32,000 nucleotides of DNA, taken from the NCBI RefSeq assembly GCF_900182835.1, contig NZ_FXUB01000001.1, positions 676,945-708,944 of the forward strand. Reading direction: 5' to 3'. Numbering within the stretch: position 1 is the stretch's first letter; each line of letters starts with the position of its first letter. This DNA comes from Desulfurobacterium pacificum (GTDB taxonomy: Bacteria > Aquificota > Aquificia > Desulfurobacteriales > Desulfurobacteriaceae). Made by a program: the position numbers and the translations under genes. Positions 1 through 10,257 of this stretch are shown here, piece after piece. A model generated the notes under the pieces. It did no database searches and was not told the origin of the DNA. It was given only the letters and a program-made list of their open reading frames with translations.

Positions 1-46
1 TTCATTAAATTCTATTCTCAACCTGAAACACATTCAAGCACCTTAA

Positions 47-1693
47 TCAAGAATTTTCACTGTCAGAATCTTCTATCCATTTAAAAAATTTTTCCCATTC
101 TTCTTCGCTTAAATTGATGTCTAAATCATATTCATCAGCAGAGCTTTCTTTAGAATTCTTTTCTGGCTCTTCTAGAATTTTAATTTTTATTTTCCCTAAA
201 ATCTCTTTTCCTAACGCATTCTTTAAAAGCTTTAAATTCCGACGATTCAGACTCAGAGAAGATATAGTCCCATCTTCCACCAGATATTCAAGCACGCTTT
301 TTCCGGTAGAATCTGTTAATAAAAGGTAGTCTATCAGTTTGTCCTGCAGTATAAAGTTGGCAGGATTTCCTGACCGGATTTTTTTAAGCTCCTTCCTGAG
401 AAACAGGACTCTTGCCTTAACCATATTATCTTTAGAAACTCTACTTTTACGACGTATTTCTTTTATTTTTTCCTTTTTTTCCTGACTTAATTCTGGAAGC
501 ATAGGTATCTGAAAATTAAAGTCTGCTTCAAGCGCCCATCTCACGAAAGAAGCATTCACAACCACAGGTAAAACACTGCCGTGCATAAGATCCCATTCAA
601 CCGCCTCTCTAATTTTGGATAAAAGGCTTTCCAGCCTCCTTACACCTAAGTATTCTTTTTCGTTTTCTTTTTCACATATCTTCGCTAACTCTATTTTTGC
701 GTCGTTTTCCACAACAACTACGTCAGGAATGGAATTAGTTGAATCTCCTGAAGGCAGGTATTCCTGCATTTTAGAACTGATGATAGCCAGATAGTCTTCG
801 TATCCCAGCTTTCTGACATTTATGCGGACGTTAAGCCTTCCTTTCAGTTCCGGTGCAAACTCTTCCGGTGAAGTTTCAGTGAAAGCTCCAGCTAAAATGA
901 AAGTTATGTGAGAAGTGTCGATAGAATCAGAAGACTTCTCTGCCCTTACCCAACCACCTTCGATAAGCTCTAAAAGGTGATACTGGAGGCTGCGGTAGAA
1001 ACCCTCTTCATCGTCTCCCCTTTCTTTTATTAAAAGCTTATCTGCTTCATCTATAAAGATTAAACCAAAGGGACGTTTTTGAAAGCTCATCAAGACAGGG
1101 AAATCTTTATCCTTTTTCTCTTCAAAACCTGGAAAAGACAGTATTTCACCGGCTATTTCTTCAATCAAAGAAGCAGTTTCTAAAGCATCTTCTGAACCAT
1201 TAAATCTGTCATACATGAACTCTAAAACCCGTGTGTGTCTGAGAAAGACTCGGGCAGCTGCGTATTCGAGAGCAGCCTTTAATTTCTCAGGTGAGCTTTC
1301 AGATTCGCAAAAAGCAGCAAGAGCTTGCTTGTATAAATAATAGTTTTTTGCCAGATCTTTAATTCCGTGATAACTATTCTTAACCGCAGACGCAAATTCT
1401 GCAGTAACTATTTCGTGCGGATCTTTTCCCTTATAGCCTGTCAAAGTATACTCAGTTATGGATACTTTAGTAAAAGGAACCTTGAGTTTCTGCGATAGGG
1501 CTCTTGCAATCTCCGTTTTACCGTTTCCGGTAGGACCTACAATCAGGCAGTTGTTCTTCTTCCTGGAACGTCCTTCAAGGTAAGCTTCCAGATTTTCGCA
1601 GATAGCATTTGACAGCTTAAAAAGAGCTTCAAGCTGCCCTACTACTTTTTCGCTGAGTTCACGAGCCAAGTAGTAGCTTGCAAATTCCAGCAT
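47..1693 (-). CDS. HslU/ClpX-family AAA+ ATPase (unfoldase-like) with a divergent ~150-aa C-terminal extension; no HslV-docking tail
   Basis: 548-aa ORF with RBS AAGGAG 7 nt upstream of the ATG. It is collinear with E. coli HslU motifs recalled from memory. These are Walker A GPTGNGKTEIARALSQKL (res 53-), pore-loop GYKG (86-89, HslU GYVG), an I-domain-like insertion (~95-205) and Walker B LIFIDEADKL (211-220). Also present are sensor-1 HITFILAGAF, Arg-finger region PELKGRLNVR and sensor-2 LGVRRLES. Residues ~396-548 have no HslU counterpart. They comprise a K/E-rich linker, a possible small helical domain and an acidic tail (SEEEWEKFFKWIEDSDSENS). Confidence 0.85.
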   Translation of the reverse strand: MLEFASYYLARELSEKVVGQLEALFKLSNAICENLEAYLEGRSRKKNNCLIVGPTGNGKTEIARALSQKLKVPFTKVSITEYTLTGYKGKDPHEIVTAEFASAVKNSYHGIKDLAKNYYLYKQALAAFCESESSPEKLKAALEYAAARVFLRHTRVLEFMYDRFNGSEDALETASLIEEIAGEILSFPGFEEKKDKDFPVLMSFQKRPFGLIFIDEADKLLIKERGDDEEGFYRSLQYHLLELIEGGWVRAEKSSDSIDTSHITFILAGAFTETSPEEFAPELKGRLNVRINVRKLGYEDYLAIISSKMQEYLPSGDSTNSIPDVVVVENDAKIELAKICEKENEKEYLGVRRLESLLSKIREAVEWDLMHGSVLPVVVNASFVRWALEADFNFQIPMLPELSQEKKEKIKEIRRKSRVSKDNMVKARVLFLRKELKKIRSGNPANFILQDKLIDYLLLTDSTGKSVLEYLVEDGTISSLSLNRRNLKLLKNALGKEILGKIKIKILEEPEKNSKESSADEYDLDINLSEEEWEKFFKWIEDSDSENS

Positions 1694-1809
1694 GACAAAC
1701 TCCTTACAATAAGGTTAATTGATTGTTGTTCTTCCCAGATACTTTTTTATTCAAAACATCAGCTACGGTAACTTCAGAAACTGATAGATTCGGCAGGAGC
1801 TGCTGGACT

Positions 1810-2046
1810 TCACGGCTTTTCTCGGCTGGAGTTTTCACTTCTGGTGGAAGGCGGTAAACGGTTGTCCCTTTCTAAAATTTTTCTGATAACTTCATTTATG
1901 TGCTGGTTAATAGACCTATATCCGTTATCTATCAACCACTTTTTGTATTCCTTGAGTATTTCCCTTCTTACCCTGATGGTGGTCTGAACGAATTTTTTTT
2001 CCTTCTTTCTTTTATCGCTTTTCATATCATGACACCTTGACGTCAT
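1810..2046 (-). CDS. Ribbon-helix-helix (CopG/Arc/MetJ-like) DNA-binding protein
   Basis: 78-aa ORF. It shows the RHH pattern: a basic N-terminus, beta-strand VQTTIRVRREI, helix LKEYKKWLIDNG and helix SINQHINEVIRKILER. An alternative and better-supported start is the ATG at 2025 (MKSDKRKK...), which has AAGGTG 7 nt upstream. Confidence 0.65.
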   Translation of the reverse strand: MTSRCHDMKSDKRKKEKKFVQTTIRVRREILKEYKKWLIDNGYRSINQHINEVIRKILERDNRLPPSTRSENSSREKP

Positions 2047-2061
2047 TTCTTTCTATTTATG

Positions 2062-2089
2062 AAGATAATCCCCATTCCCCGACAGTCAA
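2062..2089 (-). promoter_or_regulatory. Putative sigma70-type promoter for the RHH/AAA+ unit
   Basis: On the minus strand, TTGACT (2089-2084) is followed by a 16-nt spacer and TATCTT (2067-2062). It lies in the 130-nt gap between the DUF2283-like gene and the RHH gene. The call rests on sequence pattern only. Confidence 0.3.
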
Positions 2090-2174
2090 GGGGGAAAGAA
2101 AAAGTAAAAATCAGACCAGTAGGAGGAAGAAAGATTCCAGAAATCCCTCTTTCAGAATTAGGAACGTGGATTTC

Positions 2175-2474
2175 TCAGATATCAAAAAATTTCTTCCAGC
2201 CGAATATTTCTAAACCTGCTGGTTCGCCATCCTCGTCAAAATCAACTATAAAACCGCCGCTGAAATATTCGCCCTCGCATCTTCCTTTATCGGAAATCGT
2301 GACCCAGAGGATATCGTCTTTAGGAAAATACTTTGATTTTTCTTTGAGTTTCTCTATGGTAAGAGATATCCATTTTCCTTTTTCAGTGTCATAGAAAGAT
2401 ACATAAAGAATGTCGCTACTCTTATCATATTTAAGTTTTCCTTCTTCAGGCTTAAAAATGTCTATTTCTTCCAT
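2175..2474 (-). CDS. DUF2283-like small protein, probably translationally coupled to pAgo
   Basis: 99-aa ORF. The N-terminal KLKYDKSSDILYVSF and C-terminal GGFIVDFDEDGEPAGLEIFGWKKF match the remembered DUF2283 consensus (YD..aD.lYi ... vvDyd.dG.ivGiEil). The start lies 9 nt after the pAgo stop, and a GAGGA RBS sits across the pAgo stop codon. Confidence 0.6.
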   Translation of the reverse strand: MEEIDIFKPEEGKLKYDKSSDILYVSFYDTEKGKWISLTIEKLKEKSKYFPKDDILWVTISDKGRCEGEYFSGGFIVDFDEDGEPAGLEIFGWKKFFDI

Positions 2475-2483
2475 CAGTTCCTC

Positions 2484-4547
2484 TCATAGAAAATAAAGCG
2501 CTCCCATTTCAAGAAGGTATTGGTCAACTATCCAGTTTCTTCTTAAAGCGTTCACGTAAAGGTGAGAATAGTGAATTGGTGCGGGCAACCTCAGTTTGTT
2601 TTCATCATTGAATATGGTAGAAAAGTTAAGCTTGGTTAGTAAAAAGAGTGTTCTTATGAGTTCAGAGGTAATTGAATTAGGAGAGTATTGCCCGTAACTT
2701 ATTTCCCAGAAACTGTCTATCAGAATGCTTCTGGCACCTTTGCAAGAGTGAGGTAAGAGAACGGCCAAATCCTTTCTTAAGACAACGCCTTTCTTTCCTT
2801 CGTCGGATAATATGCGGAAAGAATGCCCTTTCTTAATATTGGCGGTAAACACTTTTAATTTTCTATCTTTTACAACATAAGATTCAGATAAAGAACCTAC
2901 TTCATCTTTATATAGATTCCCGTCTTTTAGCAGTAAAACTCTGCTGCCGTAAACGTTTATTTTCTCCACAACTATTTCAAGTATCCAGTTAAGGTTATCT
3001 ATTTTCTCTCCTCCTGTATCGATAGAAACAGGATAAAGACCTTTTATAGTGCCATCAGATAGAAATACAGTTATCCCTCCTGCACGAGTTCTACGGTTAA
3101 AAGGATCGTTACCGCAATCAACGCCTATGATAAGGTCGTAATTGAACTTTTCTGACAGAGAGAATGGTCTTATACCGAGCTTGGCGTATATGTTATAGAC
3201 TAAAGTTCTAGAAATATTTAAAGGATTAGAGTTTCTTATCCATTTATCATAAATGACAAACTGGCTTATTATGTTTTTGGCAAACAACCTTCTTTTAAGA
3301 GAATCGTATTTTTCTTTGTTCATTTCAGGAATAAGGCAAAGAGCAGAAGAAAATTTGTATTTACTAATTTCTTCCTGAATTTTTTTAGGTAAAGAAAAAT
3401 CGTCGAAATCAACTATAAACACAAGTTTGCCTTTAGCAGGACGTATCGTCTTAAATAGTTCTTTGTAACCTTCTATTCTGTTTAGTTTTAAAGCTTTCTT
3501 ATCTTTAAGTTGACTACGTAAAAACGCATTTACGCTGCTTTCATTAAATCTTTTGTCTACCAAGACGAAAAATGGCATTCCTCCCTGTTCTTCTATGTAT
3601 TGTGGAATAGAAAACGGAGGGTAATTCAATACTTCTTTAAGTGAAAAAACCTTTTTCTCTGTTCCATCTATGGTTTTAACTACATAAACTGGCTTTGAAA
3701 AAAGTTTTCCATCTATGCTACAGGGAGTATCAGCTAAAAACGGAATCTTCCTGACAGTTTCTTTCAGGATTTCTTTTCTCTCGAAATTTGAAATTACGAG
3801 TTTATTAGGGGATAAAGTTTTAGTTCGGTAGCAAGTGTCAGGATGAAATGGATAAACCCTGCCTTTTCTACCGAATTTAGCTTTCAAAATGGGAAATTCT
3901 TTCGGGAAATCTGTTACGCCGTATTTTTTCTCTAGAAGTTTTAAAATGCTTTCTCTCTCTTCTTCAGAAGGACTTTTAATCACTTCTTCTACGTTTATAA
4001 GGTCGCCCTTACCAGGACTATTTCCAGGAGGATAATAGAGCAATCTTTCTCCAACTATATCTTCTAAGGTAATCTCATTCCGTTTAAGCATCTGGTAAAT
4101 ACTTCTGTACCATTTAACCCTGTGCTTTAGGTCAAAGAATAAATAGAATTTTTCTCTGATTTTTCTTACGGTGAAGTTTCCGATAGTGAGTATTACAGAA
4201 TAGGAAGAATGAATTTCTTTCTTTTTAGGAAGGTTTTCTTTAAGCAGTTTTTTTATTCCTTTTTCGTTCAAAATTTTTATAAGTATCTTCTCTTGAATGA
4301 AGTCTTGAAGTTTTTGAAATGGTATTTCCTCTAACAATTCTGCATCGCTGCACGGTAATGATTTTCTGTGAGATACCACTTCAACTTCTGCATCTTCCAC
4401 AGGAGTAATAGGGACACCTATAGAGCGAACTTCTCCGTTTCTCTCATCTAAATCTTCTGATTGAGGAATAAGACGAAATCTATAAACAACATCAGGAATA
4501 ATTGACGGTACTATTTCAAAACCATTGAGTTCCACTTTGGTTTCCAT
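2484..4547 (-). CDS. ago: Long prokaryotic Argonaute (pAgo), PIWI domain with an apparently intact DEDH catalytic tetrad
   Basis: 687-aa ORF with RBS GAGGGGG upstream. PIWI motifs are IIGVD(477)CGND, TGGE(514)KI, VLLLKD(542)GNLY and LPAPIHYSH(662)LYV. The last aligns with the hAgo2 PAPAYYAH and AaAgo PATVHYSD motifs. The MID 5'-end binding motif is Y414-K418-Q429-K456 (KYDSLK...SQF...YAKLG). Length and C-terminus (GALYFL) resemble Aquifex/Thermus-type long pAgos. Confidence 0.9.
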   Translation of the reverse strand: METKVELNGFEIVPSIIPDVVYRFRLIPQSEDLDERNGEVRSIGVPITPVEDAEVEVVSHRKSLPCSDAELLEEIPFQKLQDFIQEKILIKILNEKGIKKLLKENLPKKKEIHSSYSVILTIGNFTVRKIREKFYLFFDLKHRVKWYRSIYQMLKRNEITLEDIVGERLLYYPPGNSPGKGDLINVEEVIKSPSEEERESILKLLEKKYGVTDFPKEFPILKAKFGRKGRVYPFHPDTCYRTKTLSPNKLVISNFERKEILKETVRKIPFLADTPCSIDGKLFSKPVYVVKTIDGTEKKVFSLKEVLNYPPFSIPQYIEEQGGMPFFVLVDKRFNESSVNAFLRSQLKDKKALKLNRIEGYKELFKTIRPAKGKLVFIVDFDDFSLPKKIQEEISKYKFSSALCLIPEMNKEKYDSLKRRLFAKNIISQFVIYDKWIRNSNPLNISRTLVYNIYAKLGIRPFSLSEKFNYDLIIGVDCGNDPFNRRTRAGGITVFLSDGTIKGLYPVSIDTGGEKIDNLNWILEIVVEKINVYGSRVLLLKDGNLYKDEVGSLSESYVVKDRKLKVFTANIKKGHSFRILSDEGKKGVVLRKDLAVLLPHSCKGARSILIDSFWEISYGQYSPNSITSELIRTLFLLTKLNFSTIFNDENKLRLPAPIHYSHLYVNALRRNWIVDQYLLEMGALYFL

Positions 4548-4986
4548 TACTTTTACCCCCTCTTCTTGTTTTCTTTGAGAATTTTAAAATTTTTCTTAAA
4601 AAGAATAAAACAAGTTCCTCTCACGCCTGAATCAACTTTTTCAAAAAGATCAATACCTCTCTTAGACATATTAAGCCATCAGCTCAGATAGGAAAAGCTG
4701 GCTTGTGGTAATCAACCGTGTGGAACGCACTGCACTACACACAACTTGAGTTTTAAACAGGCTTTTTGATTCACCCGTAAACGAGGGGATACGGAAGCTA
4801 TTGATAACATTATTGAGAGAAATTTATGATAGTTGTTCCAACCCCTAAACCGCTGAAAAGAGACTGAGAAATGTCAAAGAATTGTATTATAAAAGCTATG
4901 GAAAAAGAGTAACCGTCAAAAAGTTGCACACCTTAAAATAGAAAACAGGAAGGGAAAGTAATACTCAATTTTTGTGGGAGAAGGAA

Positions 4987-5568
4987 ATGAACACTTCGCT
5001 TACGCCGATGACAATTGTAATCGGAACTTGTGCTGTTGCGATTATGGTCCTATTTATCACCTATCTTGCTATTTTTGTATTGAACTATGATGTTAATAGG
5101 AAGGAAAAAGAAATCATCCTTTCTGAGATTACTCCTGAAACGTTAAAGGAAGCTGGGAAAAAAGCAGAAAAGATACGTATTCCTGCCAATGCGCTTACCC
5201 CAGAGCAGAGAAGAAGATTAAGGGAAATGGGGGCAGTAACAGCTTCAACGGATGATTTCCTTCTAAAAGCAGGTATGCTGTATCTACTGTATGAAACTCT
5301 TTTTGACAATGATGACGCTAAAACAAACGAAATCCTGTCTAATCAAGAAGAAACATACACATCTGATATAAATTCAAGCACTGACGATACCGATGCAAAT
5401 GAGCAGACAACAGATATTTTTCAAAGTCAAGAAGAAAACATAGAGCAATCTAACGACTCTTTGGATTACGTTCCCTCTTTAGACGATAATAATGCTGCAA
5501 ATGATTGGGATAGTAGAAGTGAAAGTAGTTGGGATTATGCTGATGACAGTTGGGATAGTGATTGGTAG
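4987..5568 (+). CDS. Single-pass membrane protein with a long acidic low-complexity tail ending in four Trp within an acidic, Ser/Asp-rich stretch
   Basis: The track ORF starts at TTG 4972. The ATG at 4987 is preceded by GGAGAAGG and is the likelier start (193 aa). The N-terminal TM segment is TIVIGTCAVAIMVLFITYLAIFVL. The C-terminal ~90 aa are D/E/S/T/N/Q-rich and end NDWDSRSESSWDYADDSWDSDW. Confidence 0.6.
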   Translation: MNTSLTPMTIVIGTCAVAIMVLFITYLAIFVLNYDVNRKEKEIILSEITPETLKEAGKKAEKIRIPANALTPEQRRRLREMGAVTASTDDFLLKAGMLYLLYETLFDNDDAKTNEILSNQEETYTSDINSSTDDTDANEQTTDIFQSQEENIEQSNDSLDYVPSLDDNNAANDWDSRSESSWDYADDSWDSDW

Positions 5569-5708
5569 TGAAGTTCAAGAGGTTTAAACTTGCATATAGT
5601 CTAAACAATAAAAAAACGCTTTTAGAAACATGGATTGTCAGATGTTTTATAGAGAAAAAAATAAAACCAGAACAGGCTGCTATATAGGGAAAACTTTGTA
5701 TACCGGGC

Positions 5709-5804
5709 TCACCCTACTTTTTTCTTCCCTAAATAGTCAATTACTTCAAAACCGATAAGTGAAGTAAGTATCAGCGCTATAAAAATCCACATTCCTACTA
5801 CCAT
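5709..5804 (-). CDS. Small hydrophobic peptide (31 aa), paralog 1 of a tandem family
   Basis: My own translation gives MVVGMWIFIALILTSLIGFEVIDYLGKKKVG. The ATG lies 2 nt after the stop of the upstream paralog. It is too short for the ORF track. Confidence 0.4.
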   Translation of the reverse strand: MVVGMWIFIALILTSLIGFEVIDYLGKKKVG

Positions 5805-5806
5805 TG

Positions 5807-5917
5807 TTACTTCGTTTTCTCCTTCTTCTCTAATTCTTTTTCATCTATGTAGTAGATTATTTCAAAGCCAATAGTCATTAAAATAAACATTATTCCGAGA
5901 ATTATTGCTGCAATCAC
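5807..5917 (-). CDS. Small hydrophobic peptide (36 aa), paralog 2
   Basis: A GTG start is preceded by AAAGGAGGG. Translation gives (M)IAAIILGIMFILMTIGFEIIYYIDEKELEKKEKTK. It shares the GFE(V/I)I.Y core with paralog 1. Confidence 0.4.
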   Translation of the reverse strand: MIAAIILGIMFILMTIGFEIIYYIDEKELEKKEKTK

Positions 5918-5927
5918 TTTCCCTCCT

Positions 5928-6015
5928 TTAAAGGCTTCTCAGTTCTTTCTTGCTCTGATAATTTACCGTCTCAAATATAATAGTTATTGACGCCAGCATT
6001 ATTCCAATGAATCAT
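5928..6015 (-). pseudogene. Third copy of the small-peptide family, either 5'-frameshifted or truncated
   Basis: The in-frame ORF from ATG 5999 gives MLASITIIFETVNYQSKKELRSL (23 aa). An upstream ATG at 6015 (MI...) is out of frame by 1 nt. Removing one C restores MIIGIMLASITIIFETVNY..., which aligns with paralog 2 (MI..GIM...FE..Y..KEL). Confidence 0.3.
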
Positions 6016-6094
6016 TGCAATAACCAACTTTTCCTCTGAAAATTGCGAATTCTTCTCCAACCTTATTTTAAAATTACTATCGGAGGTAAGCAGC

Positions 6095-6541
6095 ATGGCA
6101 TTACTGAAAATACACACCATAGAGGCAAAGATTTACAGTCGCAAGAGTCCAGCGTTCTTAATCGGCAGAGTAAGTTATGACACGAAAACGCCAGAAGACT
6201 ATGAAATCAAGCCAGTTGCTAAAGGTAAAACCAAAATTCTCATTGGGACTAAAGGGATATACATACTCAACGACAAGATAACTGAAGAAATCATTAGTAG
6301 AGTTTGGGAAAACTACCTAAAAGAGAGGAAAGGAAACAGAAACAGGAAAGAGGGAATAGTAGAACACCCCGTAGAAGTAATTGAAGATGAGGTAAGAAAC
6401 TACTTCTGCGAAAAAGGAATTGTTCCTATGCCCGAAACAGGCTGGATTAACTTCTCCTATGAAATCCCAGACTTTGAAAAGATGAGGAGAAGTATTCTGG
6501 AAATTGTTAAGGAAGTAAAAAGAAAGGTAGTAAAAGAGTAA
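6095..6541 (+). CDS. Hypothetical protein (148 aa), no recognisable family
   Basis: Clean ORF with a GGAGGT RBS 7 nt upstream of the ATG. Its K/E-rich composition matches its neighbours. Confidence 0.55.
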   Translation: MALLKIHTIEAKIYSRKSPAFLIGRVSYDTKTPEDYEIKPVAKGKTKILIGTKGIYILNDKITEEIISRVWENYLKERKGNRNRKEGIVEHPVEVIEDEVRNYFCEKGIVPMPETGWINFSYEIPDFEKMRRSILEIVKEVKRKVVKE

Positions 6542-6576
6542 GATTAAAACTTACATGCAAGTTACAAATCGCAATT

Positions 6577-6723
6577 ATGAGAAAGGACAAAATGAACACG
6601 AAAGAAGTCCTTAAAACAAAATCTATTTATAACAGAGAAGACTTATTGAAAATTAGGGTTTTCCTATCAGCCATCTTGAATGTTGCAAAATGCAAAGTCC
6701 CGAAAGATTCCGTAAAAGCTTAA
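6577..6723 (+). CDS. Possible small ORF (48 aa; alternative start 6592, 43 aa)
   Basis: My own translation gives MRKDKMNTKEVLKTKSIYNREDLLKIRVFLSAILNVAKCKVPKDSVKA. It has only a weak RBS (AAAGGA before the second ATG). It fills the gap between the 148-aa and 77-aa genes on the same strand. Confidence 0.2.
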   Translation: MRKDKMNTKEVLKTKSIYNREDLLKIRVFLSAILNVAKCKVPKDSVKA

Positions 6724-6770
6724 CTACGATTTCCTGAAGAGAATATCACTTTCAAAAGCAAGGAGGAAGC

Positions 6771-7004
6771 ATGCCAATAGCGGTTGAAGATAGAGAATTG
6801 ATAGAAAAGGCTTGCGAAGTTCTTGTAAAGGAACTCGGACTTATAGGATTTGTGAGGTTTGTAAAGCTTATGGGCTGGGCAAAAAGAAACTGGACAGAAG
6901 AGAGAAAAGAAGTTCTTAAAGAACTGGAAGAAAAGCTGATGAAAATGACTACCGAGGAAGTCGTCGAATACTTTGCTGAGGGAAGAAAAGTAAGACCGGG
7001 ATAG
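6771..7004 (+). CDS. Hypothetical small helical protein (77 aa)
   Basis: A strong RBS AAGGAGG lies 5 nt upstream of the ATG. The protein is predicted all-helical and K/E-rich. I recognise no family. Confidence 0.5.
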   Translation: MPIAVEDRELIEKACEVLVKELGLIGFVRFVKLMGWAKRNWTEERKEVLKELEEKLMKMTTEEVVEYFAEGRKVRPG

Positions 7005-7446: not shown

Positions 7447-10257
7447 ATGAAAGACAAAATCATCATTAAAGGTGCAAGGCAGCACAACTTAAAAAACATA
7501 GACCTTGAAATACCAAAAAATAAGTTAGTAGTCATTACGGGAGTTTCCGGTTCTGGAAAATCCTCCCTCGCCTTCGACACCCTCTACGCCGAAGGGCAGC
7601 GCCGCTACGTAGAAAGCCTTTCAGCCTACGCAAGACAGTTCTTGGAACTGATGGAAAAACCGGACGTTGACCTCATAGAAGGACTTTCCCCTGCCATTTC
7701 AATAGAACAGAAAACCGTTTCAAAAAATCCCCGCTCCACCGTCGGCACCACCACAGAAATCCACGATTACCTGAGAGTCCTCTTTGCAAGGGCAGGAACG
7801 CCCTACTGCCCCAACTGCAACGTCCCCATCCAGCCCCAAACGGTGCAGGAAATCGTTGACAGAATTCTTGAAAAAGAAGGCAAAAGAGTAATACTGCTTT
7901 CCCCTATCGTCAGAGAAAGAAAAGGCGAACACAAAGACCTTTTAGAAAAAATCGCAAGGCAGGGCTTTAGAAGGGTAAGAATAGACGGCAAAGAATACAG
8001 AATAGAAGAAGCCCTTGAACTGAAGTTAGAGAAGAAAGTTAAACACACGATAGAAGTTATCGTTGACAGGATAAAAGTTTCCGCAAAAAACAAAAACAGA
8101 ATAGCAGACTCGGTAGAAATAGCCGTAAAACTCTCAGACGGCTTGGTTATAGTTCAGGACTACGAAACAAAAGAGGAAGAAACCTTTTCCACCAAAGGCG
8201 CTTGCCCGATATGCGGATTTTCCTTCAAGGAAATCTCACCCCGCCTATTCTCTTTCAACAGTCCTTTAGGCGCCTGTCCCGAATGCAGCGGCTTAGGCTT
8301 TAAGTTAGCAATAGACCCAGACCTCTTAATAGACTGGGACAAGCCGATAATAGAAGCCGTAGAACTTTCCCAAAAGGCAAAGTTTGAATACCTGCAGGAC
8401 ATGATAGAAACAGCCTGCGAATACTTGGGAATTTCCTCTCTCACGCCGGCAGGAGAAATAAACAAAGACGACCTGAACTTTATCCTCTACTCACCGAAAC
8501 AGCCGATAAGAATTTTTAACACCGTTCCTTTTAGCAGAGGTAACTACAAACCATACTACTTTGAAGGAATAATCAAACACCTTGAAAGGCGCTACTTTGA
8601 ATCGGAATCGGACTACGTAAAAGAGCTGATAGAACCCTACTTGAGAGAAGTCACCTGCAAAGCCTGCGGTGGCAAAAGGCTTAACAGAGAAGCGCTGTCG
8701 GTAAAAATAGCAGATAAAAACATAGCTGAAGTTGAAGCTTTAACGGTAGAAAAGTGCTACGAGTTCTTTGAAAACCTTCAGTTGGAAGGAAAGAAAAAGC
8801 TAATAGCAGAACGAGTTTTAAAGGAAATCAGAAACAGGTTAAAGTTCCTCATAGACGTCGGACTTACCTACCTGACTCTTGACAGGCGAACGGCAACCCT
8901 TTCCGGCGGAGAATCTCAAAGGATAAGGCTTGCAACACAAATAGGCTCAAGGCTGACGGGCGTTCTCTACGTTTTAGACGAACCGAGCATAGGCTTACAC
9001 CAGAGGGACAACAGAAAACTCATTGAAACCCTGAAAGGACTGAGAGATTTAGGAAACACCGTAATAGTGGTAGAGCACGACACCGAAACGATAGAAAGCG
9101 CAGACCACGTAATAGACATGGGACCGGGCGCAGGAATTCACGGCGGCGAAGTCGTTGCCTGCGGAACGCCGGAAGAGATAAAGAAAAACGAAAATTCCCT
9201 AACCGGAAAGTACTTGAGCGGAAAACTGAAAATAGAAGTACCGAAAGAAAGAAGGAAGCCGGGTGACAAGTGGCTTAAAATCATCGGCGCTTCAGAGCAC
9301 AACCTAAAAAACGTTGACGTTGAAATACCTTTAGGCTTGTTCGTCTGCGTCACAGGCGTTTCCGGCTCTGGAAAATCCACCCTCATCAACGAAATCCTCT
9401 ACAAAGCATTAGCCCGCGAAATTTACAACTCAAAAGTAATCCCCGGAAAACACGAAAGAATAGAAGGTTTAGAACACGTTGACAAAGTAGTAAGGGTTGA
9501 CCAGTCTCCCATAGGCAGAACGCCCCGCTCAAACCCTGCCACCTACGTTGACGTCTTTACCCCCATAAGAGAGCTTTTCGCCGCAACGCCGGAAGCAAGA
9601 GCAAGGGGCTACAAAAAGGGAAGGTTCTCCTTTAACGTTCCCGGCGGAAGGTGCGAAGCCTGCAAAGGCGACGGGCTGATAAAGGTTGAAATGCACTTTC
9701 TACCCGACGTTTACGTAACCTGCGACGTGTGCGGAGGAAAGCGCTATAACAGAGAAACTTTAGAAATTACCTACAAAGGCAAAAACATCTACGAAGTCCT
9801 TGAAATGACCGTTGAAGAAGCGATGGAGTTTTTCAAAAACCACCCGCGGATATTCAACAAGCTGAAAACCCTCTACGACGTGGGACTCGGCTACATCAAG
9901 TTGGGGCAACCGGCAACGACCCTTTCAGGCGGCGAAGCTCAAAGAATAAAGTTAGCAAGAGAACTCTCAAAGAAAGGAACGGGAAAAACCGTTTACATAT
10001 TGGACGAACCAACGACAGGACTTCACATCCATGACATTAAAAAGCTCATAGATGTCCTTCAAAGATTAGTTGATAAGGGTAACACCGTAATAGTTATAGA
10101 ACACAACCTTGACTTTGTAAAGTGCGCCGACTGGATAATAGACTTAGGACCAGAAGGCGGAGAAAGAGGTGGACAGGTAGTAGCGACAGGAACGCCAGAA
10201 GACATAGCAAAAACAAACACATGGACAGGAAAGTTCTTAAAAGAAGTCCTTTCTTAA
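7447..10257 (+). CDS. uvrA: Excinuclease ABC subunit A
   Basis: 936 aa with two ABC ATPase modules ([14 protein letters not shown] and [10 protein letters not shown], each with LSGGE.QR signatures). Zinc-finger Cys pairs are present (CPNC, CPICG...[12 protein letters not shown]...CDVCGG). Confidence 0.97.

Follow-up and report, generated by a model that had tools for sequence, protein, structure and literature searches.

HslU-derived AAA+ proteins with a C-terminal extension in Desulfurobacteriaceae defence islands: candidate HslV-independent remodelling motors

Introduction

HslU (ClpY) is understood almost wholly as the activator of the HslV protease. The gene at positions 47–1693 of a 32,000-nucleotide (nt) stretch of Desulfurobacterium pacificum DNA (the window) raises the question of what an HslU-like AAA+ ATPase might do with no hslV beside it and with the gene for a prokaryotic Argonaute (pAgo) close by. 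Its product of 548 amino acids (aa) is 100% identical to SMP09064.1/WP_283400179.1 of D. pacificum, which is labelled 'HslU' by JGI and only 'AAA family ATPase' by RefSeq. The original prediction, made from the letters of the sequence, described an HslU paralog with a conserved unfoldase core and a replaced C-terminus that could not dock HslV. The alignments and searches described here indicate that the protein is by descent an HslU-clade AAA+ protein, not canonical HslU, and that it belongs to a very rare, previously undescribed family. With moderate confidence, we read it as a functional HslV-independent AAA+ remodelling motor of a small HslU-derived clade found in defence islands of Desulfurobacteriaceae (hydrothermal-vent Aquificota).

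Results

The ATPase core is of the HslU type

Coordinates are positions in the window, and residues are numbered as in the window AAA+ protein. Motif positions were taken from an alignment to Escherichia coli HslU. The gene and the elements of its core are as follows:

47–1693, minus strand: HslU-derived AAA+ ATPase gene; ATG start, 548 aa, stop codon at 47–49
1508–1537, minus strand: Walker A (P-loop) GPTGNGKTEI, residues 53–62, corresponding to E. coli HslU 57–66
1415–1450, minus strand: pore-1 loop region YTLTGYKGKDPH, residues 82–93; TGYKG at 85–89, GYKG being the equivalent of HslU GYVG
1079–1393, minus strand: helical insertion at the I-domain position, residues ~101–205
1037–1063, minus strand: Walker B LIFIDEADK, residues 211–219
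821–904, minus strand: sensor-1, Pro315-equivalent loop and Arg finger, residues 264–291 (FILAGAF, TSPEEF, PELKGRLNVRI)
623–655, minus strand: sensor-2 EYLGVRRLESL, residues 347–357; GVRRL at 350–354

An AAGGAG ribosome-binding site lies 7 nt 5′ of the start of this open reading frame (ORF). The claim of an HslU-type unfoldase core carrying P-loop, aromatic pore loop, Walker B, sensor-1, Arg finger and sensor-2 was confirmed by the alignment, and HslU was also the top match in the PDB (E 1.6e-29), with ClpX matching the P-loop region only (E 1e-11). Within Walker A, G53, P54, G56, G58, K59 and T60 are invariant across both the family described below and canonical HslU, while T83, L84, T85, G86, Y87, G89 and D91 of the pore-1 region are invariant in 19 of 19 family members. 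Sensor-1 (FILAGAF) occupies residues 265–271 and the Arg finger (ELKGRL) residues 282–287, and the full catalytic set of Walker A, Walker B, sensor-1, Arg finger and sensor-2 is invariant or near-invariant in the family. The equivalent of Pro315 is conserved as well (SP, residues 275–276). In canonical HslU, Pro315 is co-conserved with the HslV-activating tail, and the roles of P315, F441 and the tail have been described (PMC4106860).

The segment inserted between the pore loop and Walker B departs from HslU. It had been called I-domain-sized, but it fills only 97 aa of the I-domain columns, against 126–149 aa in canonical HslU, and although it sits at the same location its sequence is unrelated to the HslU I-domain and could not be aligned to it. 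It is 65% identical in amino acids to that of the ortholog in the metagenomic locus L012.

A family distinct from canonical HslU

The protein matches the HslU equivalog model TIGR00390 with E 2e-35, but the score of 122.5 bits, spread over two partial stretches, lies well below 362.45 bits, where the curated cut-off is set. Searching 5.8 billion protein clusters returned 14 relatives of 494–555 aa with 36–68% identity, below which there was an abrupt fall to canonical HslU, from E 1e-83 to about 1e-25 and from at least 36% to about 26% identity. When a profile of the C-terminal extension alone was run against 1.84 billion cluster representatives, only the family was recovered (8 full-length sequences and 2 fragments). 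The family numbers 19 sequences in total, all of them extended. In a neighbour-joining tree the 19 members formed one clade separate from canonical HslU, with the window protein and P0002 (68% identical) as the sister branch to the rest. Three sequence patterns are specific to the family: YTLTGY[RK]G[RK]DP, DTSHITFILAGAF and GK[ST]VLEYL. Scans of genome and metagenome contigs with the family alignments, in which the Walker B pattern is universal, gave only canonical HslU loci among the matches listed.

The absence of hslV noted in the original prediction extends beyond the window: hslV (PF00227) was not found in the window, in the 1.3 kb past its left end, where a downstream partner would lie, or in any of the family loci examined (11 readable neighbourhoods). 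By way of control, P0034, a canonical HslU from the same search, directly follows hslV. Canonical HslU is present in other Aquificota, according to a published species list (PMC4106860). The extended protein is not simply the standard HslU of its clade, as shown by a score one third of the TIGR00390 cut-off, a family of just 19 sequences and its residence in variable islands. The score, the tail and the lack of an adjacent hslV all set it apart from an HslU equivalog. The database name 'HslU' is misleading for this protein and should not be propagated.

A C-terminal extension with an ankyrin-like motif

The C-terminal part of the protein contains the following elements:

50–520, minus strand: C-terminal extension, residues 392–548 (157 aa), consisting of a K/E-rich linker helix, a small alpha/beta domain and an acidic aromatic tail
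269–313, minus strand: ankyrin-like hairpin-helix motif DSTGKSVLEYLVEDG, residues 461–475, consensus DSxGKSVLEYLVExG
50–178, minus strand: clade-specific tail (...EEEWEKFFKWIEDSDSENS), residues 506–548, without the terminal Phe of the relatives

The extension is present in 19 of 19 family members and missing from canonical HslU. The C-terminus does differ from that of HslU, as had been proposed, but by extension (or interruption) and not by replacement: up to residue ~400 the protein keeps a stretch homologous to the HslU terminus (..FVRWALEADFNFQIPML), and some 150 further residues come after it. An AlphaFold2 (AF2) model of residues 392–548 has a predicted local distance difference test (pLDDT) score of 74 overall and 82–92 in its core (~421–506), with the order helix-strand-helix-helix-strand; a long linker helix leads into the small alpha/beta unit. 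A Foldseek search with this model against PDB and BFVD gave nothing at E < 0.5 and no winged helix-turn-helix (wHTH) among the top 50. The Pfam model HTH_52 matched just 2 of 14 members, at E 0.05 or weaker. The wHTH-like module that had been suggested for the extension (residues ~445–505) is therefore unsupported by either search, and the conserved motif described below behaves like one ankyrin-type hairpin-helix. A Lon-like reading was rejected. The top Foldseek matches were fragments of the Lon proteolytic domain (35–57 columns, E 0.55 or weaker, TM-score ~0.2), and the extension has no Ser-Lys dyad, no Pfam Lon_C match and a domain of ~85 aa as opposed to ~180 aa.

The only strongly conserved motif of the extension, at residues 461–475, is in register with the ankyrin consensus D-x-x-G-x-T-P-L-H-x-A-x-x-x-G, and its G464, E469 and L471 are invariant. 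The family profile matches multi-repeat ankyrin proteins (Ank by Pfam) at profile positions 60–107, with E 2e-7 to 8e-4 and 4–9 stretches in each, and it also matches the repeats of AnkX at the position of the motif. There is just one ankyrin-like unit, the AF2 model leaves the repeat fold after the first helix, and with the Pfam Ank models the single motif of the extension falls below threshold. This pattern suggests a resemblance to a single ankyrin hairpin-helix, not membership of the repeat family, and a putative protein-binding element. The family consensus of the C-terminal domain also has a basic helix, RRIKK.

The tail is the most variable part. Its predicted terminal helix is of low to moderate confidence (AF2), and it is 23% identical to that of L012, with a ratio of non-synonymous to synonymous substitution rates (dN/dS) of 0.33. 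The window protein ends in ...EDSDSENS and P0002 in ...FNDESS. Outside the window clade, 12 of the 17 members have a terminal Phe after an acidic stretch (...IDF, ...MEF, ...VEF, ...PEF, ...IPF) and 3 end in F-x-[IL]-COOH, the pattern of canonical HslU, which makes 15 of 17 with an acidic tail and a Phe at its end or close to it. The proposal that the protein cannot dock HslV is thus a reasonable one for the window protein, but it does not carry over to the family as a whole, whose tails are mostly acidic and end in Phe.

Relatives have exchangeable partners

The type of tail co-varies with the set of partner genes across the family. In 7 of the 11 readable loci (L002, L005, L008, L010, L013, L101 and L103), a gene for a protein of 397–524 aa, here called UP, lies directly 5′ of the ATPase gene, with start and stop codons overlapping or separated by at most 22 nt; the UP proteins are homologous between loci. 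Four of these loci (L005, L010, L101 and L103) have a four-gene module of UP, AAA+, X (short or long) and a conserved Y, as at L101 4663–8823. In L099 (271–2723), the divergent member P0067 is followed by a PolB-exo-like 3′-5′ exonuclease (PF10108); no UP was found 5′ of P0067, where there are stop codons in all three frames. Partners are exchangeable within the family, ranging from UP, with or without X and Y, to a PolB-exo-like exonuclease or a pAgo block. The window clade (window and L012) has none of UP, X and Y. The UP–AAA+–X–Y module is a candidate undescribed defence system.

UP had no match in Pfam, PADLOC or PDB profiles and no relationship to pAgo by BLAST. Its AF2 model is poor (pLDDT 63), with weak Rossmann/methyltransferase-like neighbours by Foldseek (E 0.016 or weaker, TM-score ~0.2). 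X and Y contain no recognisable motif and have no match in Pfam or PADLOC. Scans of viral contigs with the C-terminal profile and with a UP profile gave no match.

The wider neighbours of the family on its islands include a Type ISP restriction-modification enzyme, AbiEii, a PLD/DUF87 protein, TumE, transposases and another pAgo. The last of these is in L101, where a pAgo of the window's clade (54% identity over the C-terminal 262 aa) lies about 4 kb 5′ of UP–AAA+–X–Y. L002 and L013 share common housekeeping flanks and have different alleles and cargo.

The pAgo block of the window

At this locus, the AAA+ gene belongs to a conserved block in the order pAgo, DUF2283, ribbon-helix-helix (RHH), AAA+ and small membrane protein:

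2484–4547, minus strand: long pAgo, 687 aa; Piwi E 4e-16, PADLOC PprPIWI E 5e-46
2175–2474, minus strand: DUF2283 protein, 99 aa; PF10049 E 1.3e-12, start 10 nt past the pAgo stop
1810–2025, minus strand: small RHH-like protein, 71 aa from the ATG at 2025 (78 aa from an alternative start at 2046)
L001 11703–12152, just beyond window position 1, same strand as AAA+: 149-aa membrane protein, transmembrane segment at residues ~50–75, acidic C-terminal half

The order pAgo–DUF2283–RHH–AAA+ was found only in the window and in L012. The nearest solved structures of the pAgo are 8jsi, MjAgo (5g5s/5g5t) and PfAgo (1u04), with E 1e-42 to 1e-37. Its GVDCG, GGEKI, LKDG and HYSH match motifs that are conserved among the homologues in the alignment; by analogy with MjAgo, we take these positions to be the catalytic D-E-D-H tetrad, which is apparently intact. 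Relatives of this pAgo are very rare in the protein collection, with just three clusters (85%, 75% and 49% identity); the 75% identical homologue, P0079, is on a 196-kb contig.

The upstream partner of the AAA+ gene had been called an RHH protein rather than a protease. The RHH call is weak, the matches being the NikR RHH domain (E 0.02–0.04) and Arc (E ~1). In PADLOC the protein has a single weak match, to SIR2 (E 0.0048). The same ORF is present in L012 with 75% identity over 60 aa. The gap between DUF2283 and RHH is 128–149 nt, compared with 10 nt between pAgo and DUF2283. A promoter-like site lies 5′ of the RHH gene at 2089–2062; such sites are no commoner in the region than in shuffled sequence. 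No terminator-like sites were found between the block genes, and a search for operator-like repeats 5′ of the RHH gene gave only unconvincing 8–9-nt matches. The original prediction called for a look to the left of the window for a protease or nuclease partner. The next gene on that side encodes the 149-aa membrane protein, which is neither HslV nor a protease nor a recognisable nuclease and has no match in Pfam or PADLOC. Its counterpart in L012, of which 49 aa are visible, is 88% identical to it. This gene may belong to the pAgo block.

Divergence within the block is uneven

Between the window and L012, protein identity, synonymous divergence (dS) and dN/dS were as follows:

pAgo: identity 85%, dS 0.57, dN/dS 0.14
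DUF2283: identity 88%, dS 0.37, dN/dS 0.14
RHH: identity 75%
AAA+: identity 68%, dS 1.66 (saturated, so that dN/dS is approximate), dN/dS 0.12

Along the AAA+ gene, dN/dS was 0.05–0.12 in the ATPase core, reaching 0.33 only in the tail. The low dN/dS indicates that the gene is functional and under purifying selection. DNA identity was about 90% over most of pAgo–DUF2283 (2150–5590) and about 60–83% over RHH–AAA+ (47–2150).

The GC content of the pAgo island (1–7000) is 0.34–0.40, as opposed to mostly 0.39–0.48 in the remainder of the window (7000–32000). The low-GC island is consistent with acquired DNA.

Discussion

If the protein is a remodelling motor, it would form a hexameric ring and, in the manner of HslU and ClpX, thread polypeptide through the pore. 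It would then remodel or unfold a client protein rather than supply a protease with substrate. The C-terminal module of linker helix, alpha/beta domain with ankyrin-like motif and tail would pick or anchor the partner or client. In the relatives, the acidic Phe-ending tail may dock on the co-translated UP (or Y); the terminal Phe is lost where UP, X and Y are lost, which suggests one of these three as the docking partner of the tail. The Phe tail and UP, X and Y would have been lost jointly in the window clade, where the ATPase now stands in a five-gene block. The most likely client there would be a block component, with turnover or activation of the pAgo complex as one example, and the RHH protein would be a transcriptional regulator.

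Several points weigh against this proposal. The activity, oligomeric state and interactions of the AAA+ protein are all predicted. The saturation of its dS, given above, blurs the measure of selection, and the mosaic divergence suggests that RHH–AAA+ may have been exchanged as a separate cassette, or may evolve much faster than its flanks. No fold or function could be assigned to UP, X or Y by Pfam, PADLOC or structure searches. Synteny is weak evidence of function here, because the pAgo arrangement was found in just two loci, and these are close relatives whose pAgo proteins are 85% identical. The pAgo itself looks catalytically self-sufficient from its motifs. Finally, the PADLOC models recognise the P-loop alone in the AAA+ protein (IetA, 28 bits over 34 residues; mad8; DolB; TRIP13, E 0.02).

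How far the motor is tied to Argonaute is a separate matter. A functional link to pAgo is plausible and unproven, and a dedicated pAgo-accessory role seems to us rather doubtful. The partnership implied in the original prediction is weakened by the distribution of partners, the pAgo block occurring in 2 of the 11 loci (closely related to one another), UP in 7 and the PolB-exo-like exonuclease in 1, and by the different divergence histories within the block. In that role, the HslU-derived ring would be an accessory of a catalytically competent long Argonaute, with the ankyrin-like module gripping a pAgo–DUF2283 complex. Such a ring might strip or recycle pAgo–DUF2283 from tightly bound guide or target DNA, or couple target recognition to the membrane protein. 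A somewhat better, still less than probable, explanation is that RHH–AAA+ is an independent two-gene unit under the control of its own RHH protein (toxin-antitoxin-like, abortive-infection-like or a stand-alone stress module), which sits beside pAgo–DUF2283 in the island but is uncoupled from Argonaute both physically and functionally. RHH and AAA+ are more diverged than both flanks (75% and 68% identity against 85%, 88% and 88% for pAgo, DUF2283 and the membrane gene; dS 1.66 against 0.37–0.57), the RHH gene has its own promoter-like site and a wide gap before it, and other family members function without an adjoining pAgo. Set against this are the shuffled-sequence frequency of promoter-like sites, the lack of terminator-like sites between the genes and the retention of gene order in the sole other locus, L012. 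Also against it is the pAgo of the same clade about 4 kb from the UP–AAA+ module in L101, which suggests recurrent co-location.

The remaining explanations concern what the ring acts on, or whether it acts at all. A ring that translocates or remodels DNA or RNA for nuclease partners would fit the identifiable partners of the family, pAgo and the PF10108 exonuclease of L099, both nucleic-acid enzymes, as well as the DNA-methyltransferase-like fold matches of UP and the basic helix RRIKK. However, those fold matches are not significant, the aromatic G-Y-x-G pore loop is invariant, and the nearest homologues, HslU and ClpX, are all polypeptide translocases; no member of the HslU/ClpX/Lon/ClpAB clade is known to thread nucleic acid. 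We consider this improbable. An alternative HslU that still activates an HslV encoded elsewhere, by another surface or after processing of the extension, is more improbable again. It would account for the retained Pro315 equivalent and HslU-like C-terminal segment and for the F-x-[IL]-COOH ends of some members, and eukaryotes are known with two HslU paralogs per one HslV (PMC4106860). It is at odds with the ...EDSDSENS end of the window protein, which has no terminal hydrophobic residue, with the failure to find hslV in the loci examined, with the sub-threshold TIGR00390 score and the RefSeq name, and with island location and variable partners. Least likely of all is a non-functional orphan left from a UP–AAA+–X–Y system after partner loss. 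The window clade does lack UP, X, Y and the terminal Phe, and the tail is its fastest-evolving part, but the frame is intact in two lineages at saturated synonymous divergence, the core is constrained and every catalytic motif is retained.

Among known systems, HslU (TIGR00390; PDB 1DO0, 1G4A, 6KWW) is the nearest homologue, with the same order of motifs and the Pro315 equivalent kept. The window protein is ~25% identical to it and differs in its shorter, unrelated insertion, its ~150 extra C-terminal residues and its lack of a terminal F-x-L; unlike hslU, the family genes are island-borne, have variable partners and are not adjacent to hslV in the loci examined. The likeness to ClpX covers the P-loop region only (residues ~10–98; E 9e-18 in NCBIfam, 1.6e-11 in PDB), and the zinc-binding N-domain of ClpX was not detected in the window protein by Pfam. 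ClpX likewise unfolds polypeptides and can work independently of a protease, as in the remodelling of MuA. TRIP13/Pch2-like remodellers of the cyclic oligonucleotide-based antiphage signalling system (CBASS), IetA, RdrA and BrxL are AAA+ rings in defence operons that act by partner remodelling, not proteolysis; the window protein resembles them in principle only and is of a different AAA+ clade.

The window block resembles described pAgo operons (short pAgo with SIR2, TIR or Mrr; SiAgo–Aga1–Aga2, which has a membrane effector; long-B pAgo with effectors) in that small accessory genes come after the Argonaute gene, the last of them encoding a small membrane protein. It differs in that its pAgo is long, MjAgo/PfAgo-like and apparently catalytically active, and its accessory genes match no PADLOC component of a pAgo system, DUF2283 having no PADLOC match at all. 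In the survey of Ryazansky et al. (2018), AAA+ is mentioned only within helicase and nuclease orthogroups. Our literature searches found nothing that ties Argonaute or defence to HslU and its look-alikes, pAgo to DUF2283, or Desulfurobacterium to Argonaute.

The family would represent a natural lineage in which the HslU motor has been freed from HslV, has gained a new C-terminal partner-binding module and has been recruited to defence islands. If the link to Argonaute is true, it bears on the turnover of thermophilic pAgo on tightly bound DNA and would add a protein-remodelling step to Argonaute immunity; a true accessory role would make this the first unfoldase-assisted Argonaute system. If the link is false, UP–AAA+–X–Y is still a candidate new defence system, with four uncharacterised families and a protease-less HslU, and it would illustrate the co-evolution of AAA+ unfoldase tails with docking partners.

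Other features of the loci

The window pAgo, a long Argonaute from a bacterium (Aquificota), has its closest solved relatives in archaeal thermophiles. Divergently from the block, an ORF of 198 aa (4972–5568, plus strand) encodes a protein that begins with a transmembrane segment and ends in a long acidic tail rich in D, S and W (...SWDYADDSWDSDW). No domain was matched in it, and part of it is conserved in L012. This ORF, the AAA+ protein and the membrane protein downstream of the latter all have acidic aromatic tails. Elsewhere the window consists of housekeeping genes, including uvrA, purH, alr, aspartokinase, a LeuA-like synthase and secY.

The weak Foldseek matches of UP include DNA methyltransferases and BsaXI (E 0.016–0.08). 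A conserved stretch in the C-terminal half of UP, KGDILIPIKRKG..NVA.ICEE...FIPK.DIAIIRLNP (residues ~290–340 in, for example, the UP encoded at L008 5709–7007), may resemble the target-recognition domain of the Type I restriction-modification specificity subunit HsdS, a likeness unconfirmed by any tool. The islands with the four-gene module carry AbiEii, PLD/DUF87, an N6-methyltransferase and TumE.

In L008, a 198-aa ankyrin-repeat-like protein (8534–9130; no precomputed Pfam match) is encoded directly after the AAA+ gene and is followed by transposase fragments, a neighbour worth recording beside the ankyrin-like C-terminal motif of the AAA+ protein itself. In L013, four tandem paralogous ORFs of 91–104 aa, 26–35% identical to one another and ~550 nt apart, lie directly 5′ of UP–AAA+ (2677–4590), and in L002 unrelated genes take their place at this chromosomal site.

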